Origin: Candidatus Aenigmatarchaeota archaeon
GTDB lineage: Archaea > Aenigmatarchaeota > Aenigmatarchaeia > JACPZZ01
Length of the DNA stretch: 64,000 bases
Assembly (NCBI GenBank): GCA_016195275.1
Contig: JACPZZ010000001.1
Coordinates: 3,046-67,045 of the forward strand
Direction: 5' to 3'
Part shown: positions 39,701 to 58,762 of the stretch, in pieces
Numbering within the stretch: the stretch's first letter is position 1
Layout of the letters: each line of letters starts with the position of its first letter
The notes under the pieces: generated by a model
Databases searched by the model: none
What the model was told of the DNA's origin: nothing
The model's input: the letters and a program-made list of their open reading frames with translations, nothing else
Made by a program: the position numbers and the translations under genes

Positions 39701-41361
39701 AGAATGTTGCAAAAAATCTTGGAATAGATTACAACACCCTAAAAAGTTACAACCGGAAGAACTCGTCAGTCGGCAGGCCGACACTTTCGACACTGAGAAA
39801 ATTGTGCGAGTTGTCAGGTTCCGATTACCCCGGCACGATGAAATCTGTCAAAGAAATATCCTACGCAGACAACGGTTTTCCGAATCCTGTGAAGATAACA
39901 GTGCCGGACGTATGCGAAGACCTGCTTTATGTACTGGGGCTGCTAAATTCCGATGGTTATATTAGCAAACGAGAAATCGTGTTTACAAATATCGATCCCA
40001 CGCTGCACGAGGCGTTTGCTCAAAAAACTGAAAAGTTATTCGGTATTAAAGTAAAAAGCTATAGACCGTTCACATCGTCGTTCTCAAATAAAACCGTGTA
40101 TAATGTGTTGCGGGTCCTTGAGGATCATCTTCCGGAGTTGGACGACAGTCTTATAGTTTCTTGGCTTAAAGGCGTTGCCGACGGGGATGGGTGGGTGGCC
40201 TGTAGAAAAGGAAAAATCAGATCTATAGGCATTGCCACCGCAAAAAGAAATGAGGCGGAATTTGTGCAAACAATGCTTTTGAGGTTGGGTATACAATCGA
40301 AAATTGAAAGGCAGCTTCCTAGCAACACCGTAGGAAAGACAGGGGACAGGATCATAAAAACATTGAAGCCGAAGGATAACATAGTCATATACGATTTCTG
40401 GAACGTTGCAAAGTTCGCCTCTTTAGTTGGTTTCAGACAGCAAAAAATGGCGAGAAGGCTCGCTGAATCCATTGTTAACACGATAGACTGCAAGCAACAG
40501 CATGATGTATTGGATGTTGGCGTATTACTCAAACGGCTGAGGCAAGAAAATGGCTTATTCCAACATTCCTTGTGCTTTTCGGATCAGACGATAAGGCAGG
40601 CGGAAAAATCTAACCGGATGCTAACGCGCAACAACTTACAGTCGTTGCTGACCTCGAAGCAGCTTAAGGGTGATGCCTACGGAGCCTTAAAGCTGCTGGC
40701 ATTCTCGGATATTCTGTGGGACAGGATAATCGGTATAACAGAGGTCCCACACGAAGAATATGTTTATGATCTTACTATGGAATCGGATAATTTTGTAGCC
40801 GACAATATCGTGATGCATAACTGCGGCATCGCTTATGGTGGCGAGCTGCCGGCGGAGTCTGTTGCGACATTGTACAGGTTCGCGAACCGTGTTCCGCTAA
40901 TGTACCAGGCCGGCGATTGCGCGCTGGCGAAGGCTGTTAGTGAAATTGAATGGCGCAGATACGGGCTGGAACAGGGTTCCGGTGCGTCATTGCCGACGGG
41001 CCCTGTTGTAATATTCATTCATATCGCGTCTGTTTGGGTGCCTTTTACATCCGAATCGAAAGAGGCGATTGCCTCATACCCGGAAATAATCAAGGAAGTA
41101 AAACTCGCACTCCAGGACGCCGGGCGAAAAATGAGCATTTACGTGAACAAGAAGAGAAGGGCCGGCGAGGCTGCGATGAGGATAAGCCTGTTTGAAAAAT
41201 ACATACCAGAAGTTTCCGACGCATTGGCAAGGTTAAGCGGCGCAGACAAACATAAAATCGCCTCTAAGCTTGAAAATATGCTAAAGAAGGGAAAAATCGT
41301 AATAGAGGATACGGGAGAACAGGAAGAGGACAAAAAAACCGCCAAGGAAGAGGATGAATAA
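36703..41361 (+). CDS. top6B: DNA topoisomerase VI subunit B carrying two inteins (extein about 543 aa)
   Basis: TTG start. GHKL motifs: VREAVDNSLDA, VEDNGPGI, GKLLFGSKFHKLIQ|SRGQQGIGISGAVLYSQ. Transducer: GNPFQIE|CGIAYGG. Confidence 0.92.
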   Translation: MSDKTIEKAEKVKSAQEMSRDQREISVSEFFEKNRHLLGYDNKVKALLTVVREAVDNSLDACETARIVPDIKVSVKPVNDVKDRYVILVEDNGPGIVKQNIGRVFGKLLFGSKFHKLIQSLTGDEPVFVIRNGKTEIIPIGNLVNSYLQPEETEKNVLDHDLLVPAFDRETYKYRFARVSHVIRHKRENEIVKLTLNTGRTLKVTGCHSIFSINPATGGLEETEARNLKIGDYIAIPKKLPSLEISEINLLDYLSYEHIKDNWAYVYGINGGIFEKLIEGAEAVHKKTDKSRKYYRLFTGNKEPVDILDDSMKQYMNKNFLPIQLVLKLGLKDAVKGGFIKTYCRGKETRIPVSLEMTDKLARFLGLFVAEGHSDKRQIALTFGRHEDHLIDEVLNFARIFGLNTTLEHRKNSIRIKLFGNMFVKFVSDVCGVGAHNKKVPEFVFRAGHIMRQHFLDAIYQGDGHKVKGRNNIMLNTVSKRLANEIMYLWSMQGIAACITSRTNKNGLGRFPSTCYVVNVYGNDINKSFVYSCPNTERTARQIEYESVKQISINSNQLVKSKLIESDILMVKIRNIETINEGHDLVYDLSVTKSENFVGGFGGIACHNSRGQQGIGISGAVLYSQLTSGKPSKIVTSTGDGKTHYMDLMIDTFKNEPEILKEEIKEGKSWHGVKVEMEVEGKYVEHQQSISEYLKQTAMSNPYAEIIYDSPNGKIKFERSVKTLPEEPKSIKPHPHGVEIGILRRMLKTTEARTLTGFFTSDFSRVGQSSAKEIIRLAKLGDDVGPKNIDGPQVEKLFQAIQQVQLIKPQLDCLSPLGEKLIEEGLKKQLKPEYVVAITRPPDVYRGNPFQIECCTGDTKIILENGSVVDIKNYIENGMFKKYDKVLSMTKDLKIKPQKVHAVQKFKNVHKILKIETRTGRVLKLTQNNELPTIINGEIIWKAAGELGAGDFVATPRRLAVDGRKPHILELMDEDCVKVHDIEAVRYLMSKCASKFYGIKNVAKNLGIDYNTLKSYNRKNSSVGRPTLSTLRKLCELSGSDYPGTMKSVKEISYADNGFPNPVKITVPDVCEDLLYVLGLLNSDGYISKREIVFTNIDPTLHEAFAQKTEKLFGIKVKSYRPFTSSFSNKTVYNVLRVLEDHLPELDDSLIVSWLKGVADGDGWVACRKGKIRSIGIATAKRNEAEFVQTMLLRLGIQSKIERQLPSNTVGKTGDRIIKTLKPKDNIVIYDFWNVAKFASLVGFRQQKMARRLAESIVNTIDCKQQHDVLDVGVLLKRLRQENGLFQHSLCFSDQTIRQAEKSNRMLTRNNLQSLLTSKQLKGDAYGALKLLAFSDILWDRIIGITEVPHEEYVYDLTMESDNFVADNIVMHNCGIAYGGELPAESVATLYRFANRVPLMYQAGDCALAKAVSEIEWRRYGLEQGSGASLPTGPVVIFIHIASVWVPFTSESKEAIASYPEIIKEVKLALQDAGRKMSIYVNKKRRAGEAAMRISLFEKYIPEVSDALARLSGADKHKIASKLENMLKKGKIVIEDTGEQEEDKKTAKEEDE
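37060..38526 (+). mobile_element. Top6B intein 1 (489 aa, LAGLIDADG domain), inserted in the ATP-lid motif
   Basis: Starts SLTGDEPVFV and ends GIACHN followed by SRGQQGIG. Blocks: LARFLGLFVAEGHS and RQHFLDAIYQGDGHK. Confidence 0.85.
39262..40821 (+). mobile_element. Top6B intein 2 (520 aa, LAGLIDADG domain)
   Basis: Starts CCTGDTKIIL and ends NIVMHN followed by CGIAYGG. Blocks: LLYVLGLLNSDGYI and IVSWLKGVADGDGWV. Confidence 0.85.
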
Positions 41362-43463: not shown

Positions 43464-43685
43464 ATGATATTAGCGAATTACAAAGACAGATCCGGCGAGA
43501 AAATAAAGATAAGAACGCCTAAAATCGGCGATGCGAAAGAGATGGCCGGAAGCTACTACAGGAAAAGTTTGGAAACTCACAAACAACTCCTGAAAAGTGG
43601 GGAAATATACCCTATCGTGGACAGCGATGGAGTTAGAAGATGCTGTGATTGCGGGTTTGAGTTGGATAGCCTGATTGAGGATTGA
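43464..43685 (+). CDS. small hypothetical protein
   Basis: 73-aa ORF with no motif apart from a CCDC cluster. Confidence 0.3.
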   Translation: MILANYKDRSGEKIKIRTPKIGDAKEMAGSYYRKSLETHKQLLKSGEIYPIVDSDGVRRCCDCGFELDSLIED

Positions 43686-43687
43686 TA

Positions 43688-44509
43688 TTATGGACTGGAT
43701 AACCGAGCAGCCATGTTATAACTATTTATTGGGTGTAAGAAACGGCGACTATAAATCTGCTGGCCTTTGATTCCAAGTTTTTCAATAACATCTTTTACAG
43801 TGTGTTCACCAAATCTTTGACTTTTATTTTTTGATACTGGTTTTTCGGCCTTCGTTTTCCCCGATTTGCCAGAATATATCTCCCATAATTCTTTATTCTT
43901 TTTGATCAAACTTTGTGCTTTCTCCGTTAAAGCTACGCCAAAATTTTCCACAGGTCGTACCAATTCTAGGCTTCTGCAGAGATAGTGATCTAATATCTGC
44001 GTTGGATCTCCAATCACAGTCTTCATAACTTTATCTGATTCGCCGAGCAAGATATCACACGTTCTTAAAAACTTGCTCATAAAAGCTGGCTGGTCTGGCG
44101 TGGAGGAGACGATTACAGCCGACAGAACTATTCCTAGCGAGTTTTCCAAGCCTTCCAGGCCAAAACTTCGGGAAAGCTCATCCCAATAGTTGTCAAGGAG
44201 AATTGATGCCATGTCCTGATTTGTTATTGTTGTCAGGTTATTTCTTAAAAGCTTGTCCTCTAACTTCTCTGTGAATATGGCCAACCTTTCATCCTTTATT
44301 TCGATTATCCCTGCGTTCTTCAAATGTTCCATGTCTCTGTTAAAGCTGGGGAACATTGCAGAAACTATGTCAACCGGAGCAGAACCTCCTGCCTTGAACA
44401 TGAACCACAGTACATCTGATAACTCATTGATTTTTGGCGATAATTTTAGAAATTCTTTTGAGAAGGTTTGCCTTGTCAGTTCGACTATATCTTCTTTTAC
44501 CACTCTCAT
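43688..44509 (-). CDS. unknown-function protein, paralog family member 3 (winged-helix-like N-terminus, basic tail)
   Basis: 273 aa. Shares ELTRQTFSKEFLKLSPKI...TPDQPAFMSKFLRT with 44534..45253. Confidence 0.6.
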   Translation of the reverse strand: MRVVKEDIVELTRQTFSKEFLKLSPKINELSDVLWFMFKAGGSAPVDIVSAMFPSFNRDMEHLKNAGIIEIKDERLAIFTEKLEDKLLRNNLTTITNQDMASILLDNYWDELSRSFGLEGLENSLGIVLSAVIVSSTPDQPAFMSKFLRTCDILLGESDKVMKTVIGDPTQILDHYLCRSLELVRPVENFGVALTEKAQSLIKKNKELWEIYSGKSGKTKAEKPVSKNKSQRFGEHTVKDVIEKLGIKGQQIYSRRFLHPINSYNMAARLSSP

Positions 44510-44533
44510 TACTTTTAATTCATCCTAAAGAAT

Positions 44534-45253
44534 TTATACGAATTCCATCTCTTCTTTTACTCTTATAGGCTCCTCGGTCTCAACGGGTTTTTCTTCCTTT
44601 TTCGCCACCGGCTTTATTTTGATATCTTTCTTTTTGCTGCTGTAGAGCTCTGATAGTTCATTGTCCATCTGTATTAACTGCTTAGCTTTTTCAGAAAGAG
44701 CCACTCCGACATTTCCAAAAGGCTCTACAAGGTCGAGAGGGAAAATATAGTTGTCCAAAACCAACCTCGGGTTGCCGAGCACGCCTTCCAGTTTCAACTC
44801 TCCAATAATGTTGGCAGAGGTTCGCAGTACTTTGCTCATAAAAGCTGGCTGGTCTGGCGTGGAGTTCGCGATTATTCCCGACAGTGTTGCCGATAGCGAA
44901 TTTACAAATTCCTCCATCCCAAAACTGTCCAGCAATTTGTCTAAATAGTTGTCTAATAGTATCGATGTAACATCAGATTCTGTTATATCCCTCAAATCTT
45001 TACTCAACAGTTTTTCCTCAAACTTTTCCTTGAGAACTACCAGGTCGCTATTCATTTCGATCAAGCCTGCTTTGATCATCCCCTGTGAATCTTCATTGAA
45101 ATTTGGAAATCTTACAGATATGGCATTCGTATGGGTGAAACCGCCTGTCTTAAAAACAAACCATAGGATTTCTGAAATTTCTCGTATTTTTGGCATCAAT
45201 CGAAGGAACTCTTTTGAGAAGGTTTGCCTTGTCAGTTCGACTATCCTTTCCAT
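44534..45253 (-). CDS. unknown-function protein, paralog family member 2 (Lys/Glu-rich tail)
   Basis: 239 aa. MERIVELTRQTFSKEFLRLMPKI...TPDQPAFMSKVLRT...KKKDIKIKPVAKKEEKPVETEEP. Confidence 0.6.
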   Translation of the reverse strand: MERIVELTRQTFSKEFLRLMPKIREISEILWFVFKTGGFTHTNAISVRFPNFNEDSQGMIKAGLIEMNSDLVVLKEKFEEKLLSKDLRDITESDVTSILLDNYLDKLLDSFGMEEFVNSLSATLSGIIANSTPDQPAFMSKVLRTSANIIGELKLEGVLGNPRLVLDNYIFPLDLVEPFGNVGVALSEKAKQLIQMDNELSELYSSKKKDIKIKPVAKKEEKPVETEEPIRVKEEMEFV

Positions 45254-45606
45254 GGTATTATTTTACCCATAAAAGTTAAATACCCATGTTTTGTAAGAAC
45301 CCTATAGGGTAGTATCACCAAATTACATAATTTGAGGGGTGGTGATACCAAGTGATAGTTAGTAACTCTGGGTTATTAAGGTTTGCTTCAAAGTGCTTTA
45401 GGCTGGTGCCAAAGGTGATGCCAGAATATTCTTCCAAAAAGGAATATAACCAAAGATAGAAGAGCGAGGCTGCCACTTCATCTGTAAAGAGGAAATATGG
45501 TGATAATGTAAGTTCAGGGGGATGAGGCTCACGGCTTTTGTTTACATGTGGACAGAGATTCAAGGGGTTTTATTGTAGGATTTATACAGAGCAAATACCT
45601 ATCGAT

Positions 45607-46374
45607 TCAAACCCACGGAAAGTACTGCCTTAACTTTCTCAACCTCCCTTCCTCTTCTTTACTGTAATATTTTATCACAGGTTTTTCTGTCGGTTTTTCA
45701 ACAGGCTTTTCTTCTTTCTCAACCGCTTCTGGCTTATATTCTTCTTGATAAGCCTTAAAAACTTCTTCGTCGTTGCTAATCCTTTTCACAGCTTTTTCGG
45801 AGAGGTTTATCATAATTCCATCTTCTATTTTTATAAGGCCCAGAAATCTATTCAGATAATAATTAAGAATTTCCTTGCATTCAATAGGCGGGGCATTCCA
45901 TGTCCTGGTGGACTCCCTGTATATACGCCCAACAAACGCAGGCTTTTCGGGAGTTGCGTATCTGATGATTAAGGATAGCACGGTTGTTATGAAATCCGTT
46001 AATTTGTTTCTGCAAAATCCTATTAGCTTTTGTCCGGCATACCCGAATGTCAGCTCAGCAAACATATCTTTTGTCAACGGCTCTTTGTCTATGATAAAAT
46101 TTGCAAACTGTTTATCCAAAGATAAAAAAACGTTTGTGTCTTTATTTTTGCCAAGTGTCCCGAGCGCATGCCACACAATCAGCTTCATTTCAGAAAGAAA
46201 CATGATTTTATTTTCAATGGCCTCATCGACTTCAAGCTGGAATGTTACAAATTTCATAGGCACGACAGCTCCAATCTTGTGCAACGCCCACAGTATATCT
46301 ATATAACCCAATGCTCTGGGCGAAAGCTTGAGAAGATCTTCGGCAAATACAGCTTCAACCCTTCTAAGTTCCAT
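45607..46374 (-). CDS. unknown-function protein, divergent paralog family member 1 (Glu/Lys/Pro-rich tail)
   Basis: 255 aa. LLKLSPRALGYIDILWAL...ATPEKPAFVGRIYRES...EEYKPEAVEKEEKPVEKPTEKP. It starts 34 nt downstream of the MinD/ParA gene. Confidence 0.6.
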   Translation of the reverse strand: MELRRVEAVFAEDLLKLSPRALGYIDILWALHKIGAVVPMKFVTFQLEVDEAIENKIMFLSEMKLIVWHALGTLGKNKDTNVFLSLDKQFANFIIDKEPLTKDMFAELTFGYAGQKLIGFCRNKLTDFITTVLSLIIRYATPEKPAFVGRIYRESTRTWNAPPIECKEILNYYLNRFLGLIKIEDGIMINLSEKAVKRISNDEEVFKAYQEEYKPEAVEKEEKPVEKPTEKPVIKYYSKEEEGRLRKLRQYFPWV

Positions 46375-46408: not shown

Positions 46409-47266
46409 TTACGCGCCTCTCCCCAATTTTTTAAAGTATCCTAAAAACCTTTTTATCAAGCCCGGCTTTTCTTTGGGTTCTATGGCAGGCTCTCTGAACG
46501 ACTCACCAAATCTCCCAACGCCTTTATCTTTTTCCGGTTTTTCTCCAACCAGACTTGCGGCGAGTTGTATATATGCTTGGCTTGCCCTGGAACCAGGATT
46601 TGATAATATTACCGGGGTTTTTGAGTTCACGCTCTGTAGAATACTTTCATCCTCCGGAATAGACCCAATTATAGGTAAGGCTGTTAATCTTTCTACTTCA
46701 CTTTCTGATAGCTCATAATCCTTTCCTTTTACTCTGTTCATTAAAACACCAATGGGTTCGATATCGGCAACACCGTCCTGGGTCAGCTTAATGGAGAGGT
46801 TCACGATTTTTGCAACGTCAACCGCCGAAGGTATGAAAGGATTCGCAATAAAAAGCACTTTATCACATGCCTTCAAAGCCATCAAAGCCTCTCTATCAAT
46901 ACCAGGCGCAGAGTCAAGCAATACGATGTCAAACATTTCCGACAAATTCTTTATAGTTTTTGTAAAAAGTTCATGGTCTATTCCTTGTAGATCCTGTATA
47001 TTCAAAGAAGCTGGTATTATCCGAAGACCGGAAGGATGGATGTACAATGCTCCAGCCAACGATGCCCTGTTCTGCAAAACTGAATTTAGTGTTATTGGTG
47101 TAATGTAAATTCCAAGATATAAACCAATATGGGCCGTGGTAAGATTACAGTCCACCAGGGCAACTTTTTTATTAAAGTGCTCTGTTAGGGCTAATCCAAG
47201 GTTTATAGCAGTCGTCGTTTTCCCAGCCCCGCCTTTTCCGCTAACTATACCGATAATCCTACCCAA
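46409..47266 (-). CDS. MinD/ParA-family deviant Walker A ATPase with a C-terminal amphipathic helix
   Basis: GIVSGKGGAGKTTTAINLG (deviant Walker A) and IVLLDSAPG (Walker B). The C-terminus PGLIKRFLGYFKKLGRG resembles a MinD membrane-targeting sequence. Confidence 0.85.
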   Translation of the reverse strand: MGRIIGIVSGKGGAGKTTTAINLGLALTEHFNKKVALVDCNLTTAHIGLYLGIYITPITLNSVLQNRASLAGALYIHPSGLRIIPASLNIQDLQGIDHELFTKTIKNLSEMFDIVLLDSAPGIDREALMALKACDKVLFIANPFIPSAVDVAKIVNLSIKLTQDGVADIEPIGVLMNRVKGKDYELSESEVERLTALPIIGSIPEDESILQSVNSKTPVILSNPGSRASQAYIQLAASLVGEKPEKDKGVGRFGESFREPAIEPKEKPGLIKRFLGYFKKLGRGA

Positions 47267-47320: not shown

Positions 47321-47644
47321 TTAATTTTCCTTGTTGGATGGTTTTTGAGGCGGCGCGATAGAAACTAGTGGCTGAGAATCTGCTTTTAGCGCATCGTTGT
47401 TTTGATTTTTCCCCTTTCTTTCAATTTCTTCTGAATAATGCTTTCGCACGTTTTCATCCCAAGCTTCCATTAAGCCATAACCAAGCATTGTTGCCATGCC
47501 TGCAATTGCGGCCCTTAAATTAATGCCGATCAATGGGATGCCTGAAAGGGTGATCACAACATCTGCGTTAATAACAACCCCTGTATCCAGAATAGCATTC
47601 AGAAGGTCCACCAGTTTGTAATTCAAGTCTCTTTTCGGTTCCAT
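47321..47644 (-). CDS. gvpM: gas vesicle protein, GvpA-family minor component (GvpJ/GvpM-like)
   Basis: LVDLLNAILDTGVVINADVVITLSGIPLIGINLRAAIAGMATM is the GvpA/J/M core. I cannot separate J from M by eye. Confidence 0.75.
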   Translation of the reverse strand: MEPKRDLNYKLVDLLNAILDTGVVINADVVITLSGIPLIGINLRAAIAGMATMLGYGLMEAWDENVRKHYSEEIERKGKNQNNDALKADSQPLVSIAPPQKPSNKEN

Positions 47645-47648
47645 TCAA

Positions 47649-48461
47649 TCAACCCACAAAATGGAAGGGGGGCCAGGGCCCAGAAAATCGAACAGATAGT
47701 CCATGTATTTTATTGGTCTCTTCCAAGAACTTGCCTAAGGCTTCGATTTTGCTATTATGCACGAGACAGGATAGATTTAGAATCATCTCTTTGTCTTTCC
47801 ATTTTCCATCTTCTATATTAATTGTTTTTTCGGCTTTCATTTCTTCCGCAGAGTCTTTAACCTGATCACAAATTTTTTTAGAATATTCTTTATAATATTC
47901 CTCCACCTTCCTCCTTGTTTCATTGATAACTATCAGCTCAAGTTTTTTCTGAAGAACGTAAGCAATGCCCTTGGGCTTCGTTTCAATGTCCATTTTTAAC
48001 CTTTGAATTTCCTCGTTGGTGCTTTCAATTTCTTGGCTAGTGGAACCAGTATCCATGAAAATTTGAATATCGTATTCTGCTTTTCCGTCTAATCTTTCTA
48101 AACTGTTTTTAAGCTTGTGATACTCCGCGCTTAACCATTTCCTTACGTCATCCTCGGTTCCTTTGATTATAGTGTCAAAGGCAAACGGAACGACAGCGCC
48201 GAATTTTTTTGCTGCTGCGTCAATCGTATACAGATGCGAAAAAAGCCACGATTTCACCTCTTCCTCTTTGTTTGATTTGTATGGTTTAGCCAAGCATTTG
48301 TGGACTATGACGCCTATGTCCTTATATAGTATGGCATACACCCTATTATTCCCTATTCCTATGTTCCCAAAACCGGTTTCTGCGCCGCAATTGGTTACAC
48401 AATAGAGATATACGCCTTCGCCAACACTCTCTTCACATTTAACATCATTCACTTTTTTCAC
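47649..48461 (-). CDS. gvpL: gas vesicle protein GvpL/GvpF family
   Basis: GVYLYCVTN...FGNIGIGNNRVYAILYKDIGVIVH...FSGPWPPFHFV. Confidence 0.8.
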   Translation of the reverse strand: MKKVNDVKCEESVGEGVYLYCVTNCGAETGFGNIGIGNNRVYAILYKDIGVIVHKCLAKPYKSNKEEEVKSWLFSHLYTIDAAAKKFGAVVPFAFDTIIKGTEDDVRKWLSAEYHKLKNSLERLDGKAEYDIQIFMDTGSTSQEIESTNEEIQRLKMDIETKPKGIAYVLQKKLELIVINETRRKVEEYYKEYSKKICDQVKDSAEEMKAEKTINIEDGKWKDKEMILNLSCLVHNSKIEALGKFLEETNKIHGLSVRFSGPWPPFHFVG

Positions 48462-48762
48462 CCTGTGGTTCCAAATACACCAACTTCAGAAACATGTTGC
48501 TCAAGGTTTCTCTTAATTTTTCCCTGTTTTTAAAATGATTTTCCCCTTCAACCTTCATCTCTATGCCATTGTCAGAATTTGTAACTACAATCACCGGGAA
48601 TCTTTTGATGGAATGCTTCTTTATGTACCTTACAAAATCCATTTCCCTGGCCCCTATCTTGTCCACATGAATTTTGCTTTCTTCGTGGAGTTCATCGAGA
48701 ATGCCCTCTGCCAATTGCGTATCTTTATCTTTTATGCTGTATATCAACCTTGTAATTATCAT
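48445..48762 (-). CDS. hypothetical protein within the gvp operon
   Basis: 105-aa ORF whose stop overlaps the gvpL start. No known Gvp family recognised. Confidence 0.5.
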   Translation of the reverse strand: MIITRLIYSIKDKDTQLAEGILDELHEESKIHVDKIGAREMDFVRYIKKHSIKRFPVIVVTNSDNGIEMKVEGENHFKNREKLRETLSNMFLKLVYLEPQGEKSE

Positions 48763-48766
48763 GCCG

Positions 48767-49297
48767 TTACCTTTTCTTCATTTTTACAGACAAAAAACCT
48801 TTCTCTTCACCTTTCCTGTATTCTATTTCTACATCTTTGACATAGCATTTTAATGGAACTTCTTTACGATATTTTCCATCTTTTGTTTCTATGATAAGCT
48901 TTTTACCTATAGGGTAGACTTTTAAATCGCTTTCTTCTACAGGCGGGGTTTCCTCCCACACAACTATAGTCTTAATGTCCTCTTCTTTCTTAGGAATTTC
49001 TCCTGTTACCAGCGTTCTTACAGAATAAGAATATTCTATACGCGGTTTGCCTGACCATCCTTTCTCCAGCCTAGACTTTATCTCTTTATCGGTTTCTTCA
49101 ACCCTTTTCTGGAGTTCTGGGGACGCTTTGATTAACTTGCTTACAAATTTTCCTAACCCGGGGATAAAGTTGCCCACGAGTTCCTCTACCGAAGAGATTT
49201 CAGGCTTCTTTTCCTTCTCTTTTTCAAGTTTTTCTGTTTTCTTTTCAAGTTCCTCTATCCTTTCCTTGTCTTTTTTCTTTTTTTTCATTCGCTTCAC
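48767..49297 (-). CDS. GvpH-like / Hsp20-like protein with a Lys/Glu-rich N-terminus
   Basis: 176 aa. The C-terminal ...LIIETKDGKYRKEVPLKCYVKDVEIEYRKGEEKGFLSVKMKK resembles the alpha-crystallin beta7-beta9 pattern. Size and position fit GvpH. Confidence 0.45.
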   Translation of the reverse strand: MKRMKKKKKDKERIEELEKKTEKLEKEKEKKPEISSVEELVGNFIPGLGKFVSKLIKASPELQKRVEETDKEIKSRLEKGWSGKPRIEYSYSVRTLVTGEIPKKEEDIKTIVVWEETPPVEESDLKVYPIGKKLIIETKDGKYRKEVPLKCYVKDVEIEYRKGEEKGFLSVKMKKR

Positions 49298-49300
49298 TCT

Positions 49301-49615
49301 TCATTCGTATGCGGCTACTTTCCCCTCGTTTTGAATGTCCATCTCTCCTATAGCGCTGTTCACTATTTTGTCAAGATCGCCGTTAATGGAATTAACTGTG
49401 TCCTCGAGGTCATTTTCTTTTTTGATATGCCTGATGGTATCATCTAAATCTATCAGGGCATTGCCTAATTTTTCAACTTCTTCTCCGGTCAACCTGCCCA
49501 ACTCCATCCTTCTTATTGCCTGATGCTCTAATGCGTCTTTGATTATCTCAACAAGTGTAATTACTAAACCAAGCAATCCCTTTTTGAGGTTATCCTCATC
49601 GATTTTGACAGTCAT
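49301..49615 (-). CDS. gvpK: gas vesicle protein GvpK
   Basis: LKKGLLGLVITLVEIIKDALEHQAIRRMELGRLTGEEVEKLGNAL. I placed the start at the ATG that forms an ATGA overlap with the upstream stop. The track start at 49651 is the alternative. Confidence 0.8.
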   Translation of the reverse strand: MTVKIDEDNLKKGLLGLVITLVEIIKDALEHQAIRRMELGRLTGEEVEKLGNALIDLDDTIRHIKKENDLEDTVNSINGDLDKIVNSAIGEMDIQNEGKVAAYE

Positions 49616-49947
49616 GCCATCACAGCAACCCTTTTCTTGCATTTTGGGCAACCATGTCCTTCAAAAAACCTTTTTCCTATCAATTCTCCACACGTGGGGC
49701 AATACGTCAAGTCTCCTTGTTCTCTCAGCGCTTTCCATCCTGGAGCATCATAATTAACTCCTGAAGGAAATTCCAGGCCGTACTTTGCTGCTGTTGCGAG
49801 CGAAGCCAGGGTTGCCCTTATTTTTATTCCCAGCAGTTCGGTGCCAGCAACTGATACAACAATGTCCGCGTTTATGACTATGCCTTTGTCTAAAAGTTTA
49901 ATTAACGCTTCAGGAAGCGTCATGACTTCTCTATTATGTGTTATCAT
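49612..49947 (-). CDS. gvpJ: GvpJ-like (GvpA-family) protein fused to a C-terminal CxxC...CxxC zinc ribbon
   Basis: LPEALIKLLDKGIVINADIVVSVAGTELLGIKIRATLASLATAAKYG is the GvpA/J core. The C-terminus is ...YCPTCGELIGKRFFEGHGCPKCKKR. Confidence 0.75.
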   Translation of the reverse strand: MITHNREVMTLPEALIKLLDKGIVINADIVVSVAGTELLGIKIRATLASLATAAKYGLEFPSGVNYDAPGWKALREQGDLTYCPTCGELIGKRFFEGHGCPKCKKRVAVMA

Positions 49948-50324
49948 AGCGCTTTTCCCTCATTTCTATTTGAGGTGGCGGATTTTAACCTCATTCCGTA
50001 CAATCTTTTTTTTGGTTGTATATCAGAATATCTGGGCCTTGCAGGGATTGTTGAAAATTTGCATCCCAACCTGTCTCCTCTTTTTTCAGGTTGTGATGAA
50101 AACGCTGAAGGGTTTAAGTTTTTTGGCCTGCCCGCTTTCTTCATAACCATTAATCGTTTATTGAGATTCACTTTTCTAGCGTATCGAATACTGTTCTGGA
50201 TTAGACTTGACCTCGCCCTGTCCCTCCACATCTGCATTTTCTTTTTCGTTTTTGCTATTATATTTTTTCTGCGCACGCCTGTCCTCATAATTTTGCCAAC
50301 GGAGAAATTTCCTATAGGTCCCAT
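49944..50324 (-). CDS. highly basic hypothetical protein in the gvp operon (possible GvpI analog)
   Basis: 126 aa, very Lys/Arg-rich. It fills the gap between gvpG and gvpJ exactly, with overlapping start and stop codons on both sides. Confidence 0.4.
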   Translation of the reverse strand: MGPIGNFSVGKIMRTGVRRKNIIAKTKKKMQMWRDRARSSLIQNSIRYARKVNLNKRLMVMKKAGRPKNLNPSAFSSQPEKRGDRLGCKFSTIPARPRYSDIQPKKRLYGMRLKSATSNRNEGKAL

Positions 50325-50614
50325 TATGCAACGCCTCCTAATATGTCCATCCTCTGGTCTAATTTCATCTCCCTTGCTTTTACACCCAGTTCCAGCTTCT
50401 CTCTCAAATCAGCATCAATTATTTTGTAATCTTCTTCAGTCCTTTCTCCAATTTCAAAAAGCAATCTGTTTTCTTTTATCATATCTTTGATTTTCGGAGG
50501 ATCATACGCTTCCTTATAGGCAAAATCCCGTATGAGTTTGAATAAAGCAATAGTGTCGAAGGGCAGTATGGAAATGCCAAGAAGCCTTAAAACAATATCA
50601 TCTATGATGAACAC
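50324..50614 (-). CDS. gvpG: gas vesicle protein GvpG
   Basis: MFIIDDIVLRLLGISILPFDTIALFKLIRDFAYKEAYDP...FEIGERTEEDYKIIDADLREKL matches the GvpG pattern. Confidence 0.7.
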   Translation of the reverse strand: MFIIDDIVLRLLGISILPFDTIALFKLIRDFAYKEAYDPPKIKDMIKENRLLFEIGERTEEDYKIIDADLREKLELGVKAREMKLDQRMDILGGVA

Positions 50615-51277
50615 CTACTCGCCTCCTCCTATTTTTATTTTTACAAAATTGTATGGTGGCCAAGGTCCGGTATACTGAATCTTTGGAGCGAGCATTTTTT
50701 CCACCTCATCCACTTCTTTGGAAAATTCCTTAATTTTATTTTTTTCAACCAAGAATGACGCATTCAGGAGCAGCCTCTCGCTAAATAGTTTGGCGTTAAC
50801 AGACTCTACGGCTTTTTTCTTAAGCGACTCAAAAATATACGAAGCGAACTGGATTTTCTTTTCTCCAAGCAATTCCATAAGTTCTTTGCCCAAGACGATC
50901 TTAATTCCGAGCTCAACTTTGTTGTCTAATAATGCCAAAGATTTTTTAATCGCATCATAGCTTTTCTCTAGCACCGAAAGCAGGACTTCTTTATCTTTAA
51001 ATGCCATGCCAAACGCCATCGGTATCACCGTATGTTCTTTCATAACCAGAGTGGCAACTTCATTGTGCGCTTTTATGTTTTCTTCGGTTGATTGATAATC
51101 TGTCAGGGGCGTGTCGCTTACAACAGCGGATATTCCTTTATAAGGAATGGTATAGACTTCGCTGAAATTTCCAATTCCCTTGTTGCCAAAACTTGCTGGT
51201 TTCTCGGTGTTGGCAATTATGCAGTAAACATATTTTCTTTCTTCTATTACGGGATCTTTTCCTGTTTTCTTACTCAT
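50615..51277 (-). CDS. gvpF: gas vesicle protein GvpF
   Basis: KYVYCIIAN...FGNKGIGNFSEVYTIPYKGISAVVSD...YTGPWPPYNFV. Confidence 0.85.
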   Translation of the reverse strand: MSKKTGKDPVIEERKYVYCIIANTEKPASFGNKGIGNFSEVYTIPYKGISAVVSDTPLTDYQSTEENIKAHNEVATLVMKEHTVIPMAFGMAFKDKEVLLSVLEKSYDAIKKSLALLDNKVELGIKIVLGKELMELLGEKKIQFASYIFESLKKKAVESVNAKLFSERLLLNASFLVEKNKIKEFSKEVDEVEKMLAPKIQYTGPWPPYNFVKIKIGGGE

Positions 51278-52121
51278 AGTTAATCATCTGTTTTTTATTT
51301 CTATAATCTGACAACAAGAATTTGGTCAGAATGCCGCTGATCTTGATATGTTCCTCAAGGCTATCTTTTACTTCATGCAAAGAAATATCAACAAGTTTGT
51401 AGATCTTCTTTTTTACAACATACTCATATTGTATCATGCCCTTCTTTTCCAAAGTATGAAGGAGTGGGTATATCGTGCCTGGGCTGAGAAATACGTTGAA
51501 GTTTTTATGCACCGCCTTTATCATATCCGTACCACACATGGGCTTATTCATTAGCAAAGCAAAGATTATCATTTTCAAATCGTTTTTCACATACCGCTCT
51601 ATGGAATCATCTTTGATAACCTTGTCAATAGACTCGGACGATAAAATTGAAATATCGCCTGACGTGAGTATTAGCTTGTCATGATGTGCCACTAAATCCT
51701 TGATAATGGCTGGGTCTATCTTTGTAACATCATATACGCATGATATTGAAGAATTCTTTTGGAATCCCTCTGTCAGGCACTTTTCGTATTTGGCGTGGTC
51801 TTCTTTAGCGATTGAGGCAGCGTCAAAAATTATCTTCAGCTTTCTTTTGCCAGGTTTTAGCGTGCTTAATTTTTCCGGTCTTAATATGGATATATTTGCT
51901 CCCAGTCCATTAAATTTTTTCATTCCGCTGTCAGGGTCGTCATTGGTTACATAGATCACTTTTTCATTTTTTTCTGTTGTAGCCAAAAGTGATGCTTGAA
52001 GCGCACCTTTGTCAATATCCGGGGTATAAAAAACTAAGCCGTGCTTAAAATTGCCCATATCAGATAAAATTGATTTTACATCCAATTTTCCCGAGTTCAT
52101 ACTATTTACCCCTCTCATCAA
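51270..52121 (-). CDS. putative gvp regulator: N-terminal KaiC/RecA-like domain without an obvious P-loop, plus a C-terminal PadR-type winged helix
   Basis: The C-terminus IIFALLMNKPMCGTDMIKAVHKNFNVFLSPGTIYPLLHTLEKKGMIQYEY is a PadR signature. Paralog of 54895..55896. Confidence 0.6.
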   Translation of the reverse strand: MMRGVNSMNSGKLDVKSILSDMGNFKHGLVFYTPDIDKGALQASLLATTEKNEKVIYVTNDDPDSGMKKFNGLGANISILRPEKLSTLKPGKRKLKIIFDAASIAKEDHAKYEKCLTEGFQKNSSISCVYDVTKIDPAIIKDLVAHHDKLILTSGDISILSSESIDKVIKDDSIERYVKNDLKMIIFALLMNKPMCGTDMIKAVHKNFNVFLSPGTIYPLLHTLEKKGMIQYEYVVKKKIYKLVDISLHEVKDSLEEHIKISGILTKFLLSDYRNKKQMINYE

Positions 52122-52404
52122 TCAAGTCTGACCTGCGTCTTACCATTATTTGCCTGTAGTTCAAAAGTTTACCGCCAGGGCTGAACTCCAATTCATACCT
52201 ACCGAGAAGATCCTGAGTGTCCGGAACAGCCTTTCTTTCCAATGTTTCTATCACAGCTTTCCATCCCTGGTCATCTTTGACAACACTCACAATTTGTTCT
52301 ACCGGCTTGTTTACCAAATCTTTCAATGCAGAAAGCCCCAATTTACCTATCTCCACCGGACTCTTTTTCTCCTGTATTATCTCACGGGATGTAGATTTTT
52401 TCAT
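52102..52404 (-). CDS. gvpO: gas vesicle protein GvpO
   Basis: VEQIVSVVKDDQGWKAVIETLERKAVPDTQDLLGRYELEFSPGGKLLNYRQIMVRRRSD matches the GvpO pattern. Confidence 0.75.
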   Translation of the reverse strand: MKKSTSREIIQEKKSPVEIGKLGLSALKDLVNKPVEQIVSVVKDDQGWKAVIETLERKAVPDTQDLLGRYELEFSPGGKLLNYRQIMVRRRSDLIDERGK

Positions 52405-52747
52405 TTACGATCTCCACCGGCTTGCCGATCCAAGTTTTTATCCCCGCTACTATATCATAACCTTCTAATTTTTCTGCTAATTTGTAGTATTTAACAAATC
52501 TGTAAAGCCTTTGGAGGGTCGACTTGCCACGACCTAGAGGTATGACATCAACCGTGTGATCAGGTTTAATACAAGTATAAAAAGTTTCCTTTACCGATTC
52601 CCCGTCCTTTTTTGCTGTCACAACAATAATTTCTGTGTCGTGAAAACCAACCGGTGCCGGCTTCCTAGGAAGGCTGCTTATCCTTACAATTTTTACGTTG
52701 CTTATTACTCCCCGGTCTTTTTTCAAGTTTTTCTCTTTTTGAACCAT
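52382..52747 (-). CDS. unknown protein in the gvp operon, short paralog
   Basis: 121 aa. Shares a domain of about 110 aa with the C-terminus of 52749..53459 (VKIV.I....RKP.....D..II......G...K.TFY..I.P...........K.......F..YYKLA..LE.YD...). Confidence 0.6.
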   Translation of the reverse strand: MVQKEKNLKKDRGVISNVKIVRISSLPRKPAPVGFHDTEIIVVTAKKDGESVKETFYTCIKPDHTVDVIPLGRGKSTLQRLYRFVKYYKLAEKLEGYDIVAGIKTWIGKPVEIVNEKIYIP

Positions 52748-52748
52748 A

Positions 52749-53459
52749 TCAAATTACCTCCGGGATTACAATTTTACCAGAGCTGTCTATTTTAACCGTT
52801 TTTCCCTTCCACCCCTTGGATTCCTCAATAACATCGTATTCTTCCAAGTTATCCGCCAGCTTGTAATACCGAAGGAAATTGATGAATTTTTGCTGGGTAG
52901 GAGTCTTCGCACGGCCATATTTTATACCGAGCATCCCGCCCGGCTCAATATAAGCGTAAAATGTTTTTTTCTCTTTTTTCCCTTCGGGAGTTTTTATTGT
53001 TATGATTATCGCGTCAGATTCTGAACTAAAAGCCGCGGGTTTTTTCCTCCACATATCCCTGATCTTTACAATTTTCACATCCTCTATCACGGGTTTTCTT
53101 AATCCGGCTTTGAATTTTTCCTTCTTCGGCTCTTGTAATTTCGGTTTTTCTTTCGGCTTGGACGGCTTTCTCACAACCTCCTCCTTTTCAACTCTGGTTT
53201 CTGGTTTTTCCGGCTCTTTAATCAGTCCTTCCGGAATTTCTATTATGGGTTGCGTGGGAATTTCTCTATGTTTTTCTAGTTCTAAAACCACAGTTTCTTT
53301 AATCTCTGCAGCAGCTTTAGGTTCCTCTATCCAAACCTCTTCTTTTCCCTCTACGTCAACTTTGCTAATCTCCTCTTTTTCTTTGATTTGATCCCTGAGG
53401 AGCTCAATCTCTTCCTCTTTTAATCTTTGCTTAGATGTTTCAGATGCCTGCCAAGTCAC
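52749..53459 (-). CDS. unknown protein in the gvp operon, long paralog with a Glu/Lys-rich N-terminal region
   Basis: 236 aa. About 120 aa of low-complexity E/K/P-rich sequence precede the shared C-terminal domain. Confidence 0.6.
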   Translation of the reverse strand: MTWQASETSKQRLKEEEIELLRDQIKEKEEISKVDVEGKEEVWIEEPKAAAEIKETVVLELEKHREIPTQPIIEIPEGLIKEPEKPETRVEKEEVVRKPSKPKEKPKLQEPKKEKFKAGLRKPVIEDVKIVKIRDMWRKKPAAFSSESDAIIITIKTPEGKKEKKTFYAYIEPGGMLGIKYGRAKTPTQQKFINFLRYYKLADNLEEYDVIEESKGWKGKTVKIDSSGKIVIPEVI

Positions 53460-54526
53460 TAAATCACACTTTTTATAATTTCTAATTTTTTTGAAAGATC
53501 AGCCGTCCCCTTTGTCTTGGTAACAATTATATCGGTAAGGATTTGCTCTAAATTCTCTGAACCGGATTCTTTAACCGCTTGTCCAACCATGATGGCGGCC
53601 CTTGTGCCCGGCCTTTCCGCTTCTGGTAATTTTGCCCTTAATGTCCTGACTGCTTTCACAATTTCCTTGGCTAATTTTGTTGATACTTCAGAGCGGACCT
53701 CAACGATTTTAACCTCGGTATCAAAGTCGTAGAAATCCATATACACCCCTATCATTCTATCCAATAAAGCGTCTTGAGGTCTGTGCACGCCGGCATATTC
53801 AACAGGATTGCTTGTGAATATTGCCCTAAAATCAGGGTGGACTTTTACGTATCTTTCTTTCCCGAAATGGGTGGGAAGTTCCAATATGCCTTCTTGAAAA
53901 ACAGAAAGCAAAACATTGTTTGCTACCGGCAAACTCCTGGAAAATTCATTGTAAACTAAAGTGAAGCCAAACTTGCAAGCTATCGTAAGAGGGTTGTCAA
54001 CCCAATCAGCGCTCAGTGTGTCGTGGGATTTGAAAACATTATGGATATATTTGTCCCTCAAACTTTCAACTTCTACTTGAGAATAACCTCCGATCAGGTC
54101 TGTAGTTGTCATCTGTCCGTCCCCATTTATCCATACTGTGGACCTGCCCAGCTCTTTTGCCACTTGCATTGCTATCGTTGTTTTTCCACACCCCGTGGGA
54201 CCAATTATGTGGACAGGATGCCCGATCTTGAGCCATATTTTTATCCTTTTTTTTAATTGCTTAATTTCGGGTGTTTCCACAAAGTTTTTAATTTGAGGAA
54301 CAAGGTAAGCAGGATTTTCTTTAATAGGTAGACCTTCGACCCCTATTTCATCCGTGGGGGCCAGCGGTCTGATGTAAGATGAAGTTTCCTTAGCCCTTAA
54401 TTGATTAAGACGATGAGGCCTCAGGCCCATGATCTTTTTAAATTGCCTTTCTTTCCTTTTCGTTTGTATATCTTTGTGAACTTGCTCACCAATAACTTTT
54501 CGAGGATGATCAGACGGTTTTTCCAT
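53459..54526 (-). CDS. gvpN: gas vesicle protein GvpN (AAA+ ATPase, MoxR/CbbQ-like)
   Basis: HPVHIIGPTGCGKTTIAMQVAKELG (Walker A), LVYNEFSRS (Walker B), 355 aa. Confidence 0.9.
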   Translation of the reverse strand: MEKPSDHPRKVIGEQVHKDIQTKRKERQFKKIMGLRPHRLNQLRAKETSSYIRPLAPTDEIGVEGLPIKENPAYLVPQIKNFVETPEIKQLKKRIKIWLKIGHPVHIIGPTGCGKTTIAMQVAKELGRSTVWINGDGQMTTTDLIGGYSQVEVESLRDKYIHNVFKSHDTLSADWVDNPLTIACKFGFTLVYNEFSRSLPVANNVLLSVFQEGILELPTHFGKERYVKVHPDFRAIFTSNPVEYAGVHRPQDALLDRMIGVYMDFYDFDTEVKIVEVRSEVSTKLAKEIVKAVRTLRAKLPEAERPGTRAAIMVGQAVKESGSENLEQILTDIIVTKTKGTADLSKKLEIIKSVI

Positions 54527-54649
54527 TACATTACCTTTTTTATGATCGTTATTAGGATAGATAAGGTTTTTGTTTTGATTATTGTATCGAATTTCGATTT
54601 TAAAAATGAAAAATAAGCTTAAATATAGCCAAATTTAATTAATTAAATA

Positions 54650-54894: not shown

Positions 54895-55896
54895 ATGATG
54901 AGAGAAAAAATGTCAATTCCGGCGGACGGGAGTATAATAATTTCAAATAAATTGGGCTGGGGCGACCGCTTGCTTTTATTATACGGGGATAATGTAGATC
55001 CCTGTCCTGTCTTCCAATCTTTTGTAAATAACGGGTTAGCTGATGGGAATCTCTGCCTGTACGCTTTTGACGCTACTAGTAATAAATTATTCTTGGGGGA
55101 GGGGGGAGAAGGTCCCAATCTTCGTGCAGTCCCTTTGAGAAAACATGGCCCGGATTTATTAGAAAAATTTTATAACAATCTTAGAACGATAACTACTCGT
55201 ATCAATGCTGGAGAGCATAATGGGCTAAGGATATTGATAGATTTTGGTAAAATAATCAATAGTTCCAATTCAACAGATATCATAGATTGTGAAAGAGAAA
55301 TTTTAAGAAAAACCAAACAATCTTCGCGTATGATGAAAAAATCTTGGTCCAAACTAGGTTTCAAGCGTTATAAAAACGCATTTAAAGAGAAATTTCCAAT
55401 CATCGCACTCACAGCGTATAACATCACATCTATTGATAATGAAAGCATTGAAACTTTAATAGGCCTGCATGATAAAATTGTGGTTTCTGAACAAAATAAA
55501 TTTATCGCACTTTTGCCAAATTTTACTGGCAATCGAGAGATAAGCGTGAAAAATTCTTTAGACATTATTTCAAAAGAAGCTGTAGAAGAGTTTGTTAAAA
55601 AGAATCTTGAGAGCATAATATTGGCGATGTTGTATGGAAAAGCAATGTGTGGTTATGATATGATTAAAATAATCTCCATGCGTTACCATACCTTTGTAAC
55701 CCAGGGAACTGTTTACTCTATCCTATATTCCCTTGAGAAAGGGGGAATTTTAAAAAAAGAGACCATGCCTGATAATAAAACAAAGGTATTTATTTTGACT
55801 GAAAATGGAAGAAATGTTGCCAAAAATAAGCTAACGGAGTTCACCAAGATTTTAGAGTACACGTTTTCCATTTTAAAATTGAACAATCAATTTTAA
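54895..55896 (+). CDS. putative gvp regulator, paralog of 51270..52121 (degenerate KaiC/RecA-like N-domain plus a PadR-type winged helix)
   Basis: C-terminus ILAMLYGKAMCGYDMIKIISMRYHTFVTQGTVYSILYSLEKGGILKKE. N-terminus GDRLLLLYGDNVDPCPVFQSFVNNGLADGNLCLYAF. Confidence 0.6.
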   Translation: MMREKMSIPADGSIIISNKLGWGDRLLLLYGDNVDPCPVFQSFVNNGLADGNLCLYAFDATSNKLFLGEGGEGPNLRAVPLRKHGPDLLEKFYNNLRTITTRINAGEHNGLRILIDFGKIINSSNSTDIIDCEREILRKTKQSSRMMKKSWSKLGFKRYKNAFKEKFPIIALTAYNITSIDNESIETLIGLHDKIVVSEQNKFIALLPNFTGNREISVKNSLDIISKEAVEEFVKKNLESIILAMLYGKAMCGYDMIKIISMRYHTFVTQGTVYSILYSLEKGGILKKETMPDNKTKVFILTENGRNVAKNKLTEFTKILEYTFSILKLNNQF

Positions 55897-56076
55897 AAAA
55901 GTTTTTTTCTCGTGTCGAAACTGGATACAGATCACGATATTCTTTTTAGATGATCTTTTGATATGTAATTTAAAAGATAATGCTTAAAACAGCCCATTTC
56001 TATATTCTGATTAAAGTGTTAGAGACGAGAAAAGGCGAGTCTCTGATAATATATAAAATTGATAGGAGGGCTATAA

Positions 56077-56304
56077 GTGGCAACACCAACTGGGCCAAAC
56101 GTTTCAAGTTTGGCTGAAGTATTGGACAGAATTTTGGATAAGGGAGTAGTAGTAGATGCATGGGTAAGAGTGAATCTAGTCGGCATAGAGATACTATCCA
56201 TAGAGGCTAGAATTGTGGTAGCGTCGGTGGACACATTCTTGCATTATGCAGAAGAAATGACCAAGATAGAACAGGCGGCATTGGCAGTTCCTGTTCCTGC
56301 CTAA
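56077..56304 (+). CDS. gvpA: major gas vesicle structural protein GvpA
   Basis: GTG start 8 nt after [59 protein letters not shown] is the canonical GvpA sequence. Confidence 0.95.
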
Positions 56305-58140: not shown

Positions 58141-58472
58141 AAAGGATCAGGAAAAGCCCAAAGAAAAAAATTAGAAAAATAAAACCTAAGCCAAGAAAAA
58201 TTGTTAGGCCGAAGAAACGAGTCAAGAGAAGCGCTAGAAAACCAAAGTCTATTCCTAAGAAGAAAAGAAAGATTACAAAACCAAAGAAAGTTAAGAACGT
58301 CAAGCGTGCAAAGAAGCCCAAAAAAGTTTCTAGAAAAATTAAAAGAGGGCTAGAAAAAATAAAGAAAAAGGTTGTGCAAAGGAAAAAAATTATGAAGCCT
58401 AAGATCATTAAGTCACAAGCATCGAAATTGCTTAAGACTTTAAAAAGAATCTTTACAATAGAAAGAGTGTGA
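58086..58472 (+). other. Lys-rich (KPK/KKP repeat) ORF of 128 codons in the -1 frame with no usable start codon; possible frameshifted continuation of 57655..58140
   Basis: The frame opens at 58086, inside the A6 run 58084..58089. It reads KIKPKKKKIPKKVKPKPVKRIRKSPKKKIRKIKPKPRK... to TGA at 58470..58472. Confidence 0.45.
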
Positions 58473-58474
58473 AT

Positions 58475-58762
58475 ATGCCTGTAAGAGTGGATAGAAACCG
58501 CCTTAAAGAGTCTTTGGACACAGTTATATTGTCGTTTCTGAATAAGAACGCAATGAACGATAAAGATATACCAGAGCTTATTTATAAAAAATTCGGGGTA
58601 TATTTCAGTAATAAAACAATCAACGAATTTCTTGCTTCTTTGGAAAAGAATAAGCTGATAAAGGGCGCAATTGCAAAAAAGGAAAAGATATATTCCATAA
58701 CTGAAAATGGGAAAAAGGCAATCAAAGTGACAGGTAAATTATTGAAAGAACTTGGCTTGTGA
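58475..58762 (+). CDS. small winged-helix (PadR/MarR-like) DNA-binding protein
   Basis: LDTVILSFLNKNAMNDKDIPELIYKKF...INEFLASLEKNKLIKG. Confidence 0.5.
   Translation: MPVRVDRNRLKESLDTVILSFLNKNAMNDKDIPELIYKKFGVYFSNKTINEFLASLEKNKLIKGAIAKKEKIYSITENGKKAIKVTGKLLKELGL

Follow-up and report, generated by a model that had tools for sequence, protein, structure and literature searches.

We analyzed a 64-kb stretch of archaeal DNA (the window), taken from a 69-kb contig of a metagenome-assembled genome labelled Candidatus Aenigmarchaeota, in which three neighboring genes of no known family, here called A, B and C (locus tags HY051_00235-00245), lie downstream of a gene for a MinD-type ATPase and of a gas-vesicle (gvp) operon. 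All three are on the minus strand and co-directional with minD and the operon; an earlier note on this DNA had placed three open reading frames here on the strand of the MinD/ParA and gvp genes, and its positions were exact. A (45607..46374) encodes 255 residues, predicted to form a tandem winged helix with a near-neutral fold body (isoelectric point, pI, 7.7), a disordered linker and a conserved C-terminal peptide. B (44534..45253, 239 residues) is predicted to join an acidic tandem winged-helix fold of pI 4.7 and net charge -10 to a disordered tail rich in K, E and P, and in C (43688..44509, 273 residues) a tandem winged-helix fold that is likewise acidic (pI 5.0, net charge -7) carries a basic tail of pI 10.4.

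B and C share 51% identity (E=3e-58, tblastn), and A matched C at E=1.5e-11 and B at E=2e-6. These significant matches confirmed, at the level of sequence, that A, B and C are true paralogs, as the earlier note had proposed, and the three are anciently duplicated members of a tiny, lineage-restricted tandem winged-helix family. The motif TP(D/E)(Q/K)PAF, which had been listed as common to all three, was indeed found in each and is nearly invariant family-wide (P142/P145 of A). The N-terminal segment ...LTRQTFSKEFL... had been described as shared as well, and it is strong in B and C only, A retaining its skeleton alone (F, LL.LSP, ILW and K.G). The description of the C-terminal tails as divergent, charged and Lys/Glu/Pro-rich held, and all three tails are predicted to be disordered, with a predicted local distance difference test (pLDDT) score below 50. 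Following its disordered linker, A ends in ...LRKLRQYFPWV. A C-terminal peptide of the form (L/I)(R/K)xxF(P/S)W is kept in 8 of 10 A-type sequences (one other ends in FPL and one is tailless), and in the AlphaFold2 model of A a helix at residues 239-251 has a pLDDT of ~89. The trio evolves faster than the MinD and Gvp proteins, as judged from lower identities between the window and a related locus, L004: 44% for A, 45% for B and 55% for C, against 70% for MinD, 65% for GvpJ and 62% for GvpL.

The AlphaFold2 models of A (pLDDT 88.2, predicted template modelling score 0.76) and B (84.9 and 0.77) had the same architecture, in which an N-terminal helix, a first winged helix (WH1), 3-4 linker helices, a second winged helix (WH2) and two more helices make up a folded body of ~210 residues that ends in the disordered tail. 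Both winged helices of each protein run alpha1-beta1-alpha2-alpha3-beta2-beta3. The earlier note had read the N-terminal part as winged-helix-like, which the models bore out; the "central helical domain" that it had assigned to the TP..PAF motif proved to be the start of WH2, where the motif forms the alpha1'-beta1' loop. Each N-terminus is a structured helix that packs against WH1 (pLDDT 87-93), and in B and C this helix, ELT(K/R)QTFSKEFL, is highly conserved and contains Lys/Arg. In both winged helices, helix 3 is short, has no basic character and is poorly conserved (e.g. EDSQGMIKAG). Together with the acidic bodies of B and C, these recognition helices point to a use of the winged helices in protein-protein contacts rather than in reading DNA, at least in B and C; the body of A itself is close to neutral, and in distant A-type singletons it is basic, with a pI of ~9.

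Foldseek, run with the A and B models on PDB and with B on BFVD, returned no match at E<0.01, so that a structural check of the kind suggested in the earlier note recovered the winged-helix fold and no specific family. The best full-length neighbors, all non-significant, were RPC82 (E=0.019), TFIIE-alpha and MAGE/Nse3, with query-normalised TM scores of ~0.22-0.27. RNA polymerase III RPC82/C82, TFIIE-alpha/TFE-alpha and the kite proteins MAGE/Nse3 resemble the trio in being arrays of at least two winged helices, and such arrays serve mainly in protein-protein contacts, often as heteromers of paralogs. They differ from it in that the matches were non-significant, sequence similarity was absent, and the context and biology are unrelated. 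The best single-domain neighbors were MarR, PadR, TFE-alpha and the pNOB8 centromere-binding protein AspA, to which WH1 of A aligned with a target-normalised TM score of 0.60 over 78 residues at E=0.17, a generic winged-helix match. Two tandem winged helices and a set of three paralogs also brought kite (ScpB, Nse1/3) and ESCRT-II (Vps22/25/36) subunits into question, but neither group was supported by fold scores or by Pfam matches: MAGE-A4 and Nse3 appeared at E=0.1-1.5 with TM scores of ~0.2, and neither ScpB nor Vps25 was among the top 50 Foldseek matches. As modeled, the family is a new orphan tandem winged-helix architecture.

The earlier note had recognised no family for these proteins, and this stood across Pfam, NCBIfam, PADLOC, PHROGs, PDB sequence and fold searches. 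Scans of A, B and C with the first four libraries found no known family, nor did any of the three match a profile of the winged helix-turn-helix regulator families (MarR/PadR/ArsR-like) in Pfam or NCBIfam. A Pfam scan of 27 relatives one by one gave nothing recurrent, and PDB sequence searches with profiles of 3, 15 and 27 sequences gave noise only. A, B and C match no described Gvp family; their neighbors match the Gas_vesicle, GvpL_GvpF, GvpK, GvpG and GvpO models. The family is small, with ~30 relatives in total among ~15 billion proteins; we counted 15 clusters at 90% identity among 5.8 billion, and an exhaustive profile search of 1.84 billion returned 18 representatives at 50% identity. 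Scanning GTDB genomes for more loci added two singleton loci and one spurious bacterial match only, scanning JGI metagenomes returned a single short contig that was already among the collected loci, and no relatives were found in the viral contigs scanned.

The ATPase gene (46409..47266, minus strand) encodes 285 residues with a Pfam CbiA match (6e-18) and a deviant Walker A motif, KGGAGKT. It scored 197.8 bits with the NCBIfam model minD_arch, just below the cut-off of 201.75, and 55.6 bits with ParA_partition. The protein carries a C-terminal extension rich in K, E and P that ends in a predicted amphipathic helix, GLIKRFLGYFKKLGRGA, with a hydrophobic moment of 0.67. We found only five close orthologues (52-70% identity), all of them long-tailed, and ordinary MinDs of 250-270 residues came next at <=47%. 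By these comparisons the gvp-linked MinDs make up a small group of their own, whose genes are linked to gvp genes in the window and two related loci, L004 and L012; an ordinary-MinD locus, L013, had neither gvp nor trio neighbors. The extension ends in an amphipathic helix in the window and in L004 (12455-13561), and in L012 (1108-2019) it ends in a very basic Lys/Arg tail.

Upstream of minD, Pfam and NCBIfam scans delimited the gvp operon at 47321..54526 on the minus strand. It runs from gvpN through two unknown genes, gvpO, a MEDS-PadR gene, gvpF, gvpG and another unknown gene to a gvpA/J-like gene with a Zn ribbon, gvpK, an Hsp20-like gene, a further unknown gene, gvpL and a gvpJ/M-like gene, after which comes minD. 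The canonical major gas vesicle protein, of 75 residues, is encoded on the plus strand by gvpA (56077..56304); it is similar to the other Gas_vesicle-domain reading frames, and a gene of 95 residues (56371-56658) follows it. Two genes encode regulators that combine a MEDS domain with a PadR-type winged helix, one beside the operon (54895..55896, plus strand) and the second inside it (51270..52121, minus strand). These two paralogous proteins are likely the gas-vesicle regulators of the lineage, as functional counterparts of the haloarchaeal GvpD/GvpE.

The region from ~44 to 60 kb has a GC content of 0.33-0.42, compared with 0.43-0.49 on both sides. This low-GC island holds C, B, A, minD, all gvp genes, both MEDS-PadR genes and gvpA, as well as a small PadR-like gene (58469..58762), and its left flank includes Topo VI, its right flank EF-1alpha. 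Because the trio, minD and the gvp cluster lie together in such an island, the composition suggests that a DPANN-type archaeon acquired its gas-vesicle island horizontally. Directly after C, a reading frame of 73 residues on the plus strand (43464..43685) may be what is left of a tyrosine recombinase C-terminus, to which its similarity is weak (31% over 54 residues, pairwise E=0.002). In the left flank, the gene for Topo VI subunit B (36703-41361, plus strand) encodes 1552 residues and has two apparent intein-like insertions, recognised by eye as LAGLIDADG/HNH-type blocks.

We compared the trio with five other contigs, L001-L005, most of which provide 3-6 kb of context and come from a few related metagenomes of a narrow clade. 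All five carried an ordered, orthologous A-B-C trio at 43-79% identity. This conservation of order argues for three subunits that are not redundant, as far as gene order and sequence can tell. In L002 the arrangement is minD-A-B-C. In L003, A-B-C is followed by a small gene and then by a convergent minD, and L004 (GCA_053536295.1, a 150-kb contig) has the same arrangement with gvpJ and gvpL after minD, so that it keeps the gvpL-gvpJ-minD order of the window but with the trio inverted. The convergent orientation in L003 and L004 indicates that the linkage between trio and minD survived an inversion. In L001 the order is gvpJ, A, B, C and integrase fragments, with no minD between gvpJ and A, and in L005 an intact integrase, divergent from A-B-C, sits where minD would be. 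The trio thus adjoins a long-tailed MinD in the window, L002, L003 and L004 and not in L001 or L005, and it adjoins gvpJ and gvpL in the window and L004, and gvpJ in L001. The integrases of L005 (64-1251, minus strand, intact) and L001 (3089-3822, minus strand, fragmented) are homologous tyrosine recombinases (Phage_integrase/MrpR-like, with a C-terminal zinc ribbon), and this recombinase may relate to mobility of the island or to the inversion of the trio in L003 and L004.

Some further features of these loci were noted. The GvpJ of L001 (2-412) has a C-terminal extension and matches the L004 protein (13623-14300, minus strand) at E=1e-34; in these GvpJ/M-like proteins the extension is ~120 residues long, bears the motif WY.S.ASD.I..TWLPG....TD..V.W, and is absent from the 107-residue version of the window. 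In L003 (1904-2098) and L004 (12257-12448), where minD is convergent, a conserved basic protein of 63-64 residues, MGKKEK...KPLKKKK, is encoded directly after C and has no counterpart in the window. A more distant locus, L006 (2-844 and 2546-2758), has a pair of one A-type and one B/C-type gene directly after ftsZ and, beyond a copy of the palindrome described next, a gene of 70 residues that looks like a small winged-helix protein.

The palindrome, GTATCGA-N3-TCGATAC, occurs in the A-B spacers (~55 bp) of all five orthologous loci, where it lies just after the stop codon of A and just upstream of a TATA-like box ~30 nt before the start of B. We scanned 76.7 kb of related loci and the 64-kb window for this element, allowing up to two mismatches. 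The related loci contained 8 matches where 0.14 were expected, 7 of them in spacers next to A/B/C-family genes (L001, 429-445; L002, 1969-1985; L003, 425-441; L004, 10768-10784; L005, 2432-2448; L006, 2329-2345) or in the intergenic region between the divergent gvpN and minD genes of L012 (966-982). No match was found in the ordinary-MinD locus L013. The window contained exactly two matches, also against an expectation of 0.14, a number reached in 1 of 100 shuffles, and each had two mismatches. One, GTATCGAATTTCGATTT (54584..54600), precedes the gvpN start by 58 bp, between the divergent gvpN and MEDS-PadR genes, and the other, GTGTCGAAACTGGATAC (55912..55928), lies ~150 bp upstream of gvpA. 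Since the same element is found in the trio spacers of relatives and at the gvpA and gvpN promoters, the trio and the gas-vesicle genes are probably switched on together, and on these matches the palindrome is a candidate operator of the gas-vesicle regulon in this lineage. The MEDS-PadR proteins are the conventional candidates for binding it, with A also possible. The palindrome is less likely to be a hairpin in RNA or a terminator serving A, given that copies also stand in the non-coding regions upstream of gvpA and gvpN, and before TATA-like boxes.

In the window itself the A-B spacer (45254..45606, minus strand) measures 353 bp and retains only a degenerate half-site, ATCGATA, beside the A stop codon. 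It contains ~315 bp that the orthologous loci lack, bordered by an imperfect direct repeat of 10 bp, AAATACC[C/T]AT; this segment may be a small insertion that parted the remnant of the palindrome from the B promoter. We found no second copy of the insert in the window or in the collected loci, and an Rfam scan of 42-48 kb returned no RNA family. A promoter and terminator scan used bacterial-type models and was uninformative for an archaeon.

The shared compositional island, the conserved neighborhood and the common palindrome support the view that the trio belongs with the gas-vesicle island. Our preferred reading, which we hold tentatively and at somewhat less than even confidence, is that A, B and C form a heteromeric winged-helix adaptor for the MinD of the island, co-regulated with the gas vesicles. 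The acidic winged-helix bodies of A, B and C would hold them together in a hetero-oligomeric scaffold, and this scaffold would act as the partner of the MinD with the C-terminal amphipathic helix, coupling its ATP cycle to a cargo. Gas vesicles, either nascent or mature, are the most likely cargo. Docking would fall to the flexible charged tails and to the ...LRxxFPW peptide at the C-terminus of A. Disordered charged tails and fast evolution are typical of partner proteins of ParA/MinD ATPases. That the module is a MinD-based system devoted to the placement or organisation of gas vesicles, in which a heterotrimer of A, B and C links the ATPase to the vesicle surface, is a further step that we regard as doubtful.

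This adaptor reading follows the logic of McdAB-type organelle positioning, without homology to known partners. Like McdB, MinE, ParB and PomXY, the trio is encoded beside an ATPase of the ParA/MinD class, evolves fast and has charged disordered regions. A protein organelle as cargo would match McdB in particular, as would the aromatic peptide conserved at the C-terminus of A, which recalls an invariant C-terminal tryptophan that McdB, according to PMC11321042, uses for its interaction with the carboxysome. The trio differs from these systems in having three paralogs in place of one partner and an ATPase linkage that is not family-wide, and in its large folded tandem winged helices, as opposed to the coiled coils and disordered regions of McdB, the CTPase and helix-turn-helix domains of ParB, or the MinE fold. 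Bacterial gvp clusters that encode two-domain ArsA homologues, which are SIMIBI ATPases for which partner proteins were not identified (PMC2963123), offer a precedent for an ATPase of the MinD/ArsA class within gas-vesicle clusters. A second parallel is MinD4 of Haloferax, an archaeal MinD paralog with a C-terminal membrane-targeting helix and a non-divisome cargo, the motility machinery that it positions (bioRxiv 10.1101/2020.04.03.021790); the amphipathic helix that ends the island MinD resembles that of such membrane-binding MinDs. We also considered the archaeal Dip system, three divisome-positioning proteins whose genes lie next to cell-division genes, and rejected it on the nature of its components, a GTPase (DipA), a SepF-like DUF2073 protein (DipB) and a Zn-ribbon protein with a disordered region (DipC). 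The literature that we searched, which also covered archaeal MinD2, held no description of a MinD or winged-helix module in gas-vesicle clusters.

Several observations weigh against the adaptor reading. No homology to ParB, MinE or McdB was detected in Pfam, NCBIfam or PDB sequence searches, the 27 relatives included, and the earlier note's suggestion of a ParB/McdB-like family did not hold, because these are folded tandem winged helices of ~210 residues rather than small, largely disordered proteins. A free basic N-terminal peptide, of the kind by which such partners usually stimulate their ATPase, was not seen in the A and B models or in the trio sequences. MinD and the trio are also separable: L012 has gvpN, a divergent minD and another gvp-cluster gene with no trio alongside, L001 has the trio beside gvpJ without minD, and L005 has an integrase in the place of minD. 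Among the distant members, L006 carries FtsZ, an A-type gene and a single B/C-type gene, the A-type singletons of L007, L008 and L015 follow eIF2-gamma, and the singletons of L009, L010 and L011 stand beside PIN, MetK and RimK-like genes, respectively. None of L006-L011 and L015 has a MinD or gvp neighbor, and the singleton loci L007-L011 lack the palindrome at up to two mismatches. Given these distant members, the ancestral function of the family cannot be specific to gas vesicles; the family is older than its association with them, and the triplication belongs, like the linkage to minD and gvp, to the gvp-bearing clade. Because most contexts are short contigs from that narrow clade, shared ancestry inflates the evidence from synteny. 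The earlier note had asked for conserved linkage and proposed an adaptor role. In the narrow clade the trio does stay near MinD, gvp genes or both, and fast evolution and charged disordered tails fit an adaptor; L012, L001 and the distant members limit the linkage, and the separability from MinD and the lack of a free basic peptide count against the role.

If A, B and C were instead DNA-binding regulators, they would bind the TATCGA palindrome, autoregulate, and control the gvpA and gvpN promoters as a functional analogue of the haloarchaeal GvpD/GvpE pair. This we consider unlikely, although the position at a gvp cluster, the winged-helix fold, the single-domain resemblance to MarR, PadR, TFE-alpha and AspA, and the basic bodies of the distant A-type singletons are all consistent with it, and a palindrome in the proteins' own spacers as well as at the gvp promoters is the classic layout of an autoregulated transcription factor. 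B and C have strongly acidic bodies with short, non-basic and poorly conserved helix-3 segments, which leaves DNA binding open for the neutral A alone. The trio showed no homology to GvpD/GvpE or to PadR and MarR regulators in the profile search of 1.84 billion proteins or in the Pfam, NCBIfam and PDB searches, every Foldseek E-value exceeded 0.01, three non-redundant paralogs with disordered K/E/P tails would be unusual for prokaryotic regulators, and the palindrome is missing from the singleton loci. More conventional candidates for binding a dyad-symmetric site are moreover at hand in the island, namely the two MEDS-PadR proteins and the small PadR-like protein.

The singleton loci also bear on whether the family has a housekeeping role that has nothing to do with gas vesicles, for instance as a winged-helix scaffold of cell division, chromatin or transcription, with its place beside minD and gvp due to inherited synteny or to insertion of an island next to it. 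The company of FtsZ, eIF2-gamma, MetK, PIN and RimK-like genes in distant loci without MinD or gvp, the presence of FtsZ 9.5 kb from the trio in L004, and the RPC82 and TFIIE-type arrays at the top of the multi-domain fold neighbors would agree with such a role. We judge it distinctly unlikely, since the trio lies inside the low-GC island and not outside it, the expansion to three copies is confined to loci with gvp or minD neighbors, the linkage outlasts an inversion, and synteny alone would hardly explain why the trio loci share a palindrome with the gvpA and gvpN promoters. It is very improbable, in our estimate, that MinD and the trio work as a module for DNA partition or island maintenance, like the three-component ParA-ParB-AspA system of pNOB8, with centromere-like palindromes on a mobile gas-vesicle island. 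The ATPase is of the MinD type (197.8 bits, against 55.6 for ParA_partition) and its amphipathic C-terminus is of the membrane type, housekeeping genes of the chromosome flank the island, the palindromes stand at promoter-like positions upstream of TATA-like boxes, and the viral contigs scanned held no relatives. Such a module would account for the compositional island, for palindromes dispersed within the locus, and for the tyrosine recombinase that flanks the trio intact in L005, as fragments in L001 and as a possible remnant in the window; the resemblance of WH1 of A to AspA (TM 0.60 over 78 residues) also favors it, but that match is generic (E=0.17).

To our knowledge, the distribution of gas vesicles in cells is poorly understood, and the partner proteins of archaeal MinD paralogs are largely unknown. 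The only factor for the spatial organisation of gas vesicles in the literature that we searched was the phase-separating GvpU of Bacillus, which drives their clustering. A gvp island with its own MinD, three winged-helix proteins and a promoter palindrome is a compact, testable candidate system, of relevance to archaeal cell biology and to the engineering of gas vesicles as acoustic reporters. Whatever the mechanism, the palindrome offers a concrete candidate gas-vesicle operator for this lineage. Should the module prove to be a dedicated system of this kind for placing or organising gas vesicles, no ParA/MinD-type positioning system would have been described for them before, nor any partner proteins for an archaeal MinD, and this one would belong to a DPANN-type archaeon.

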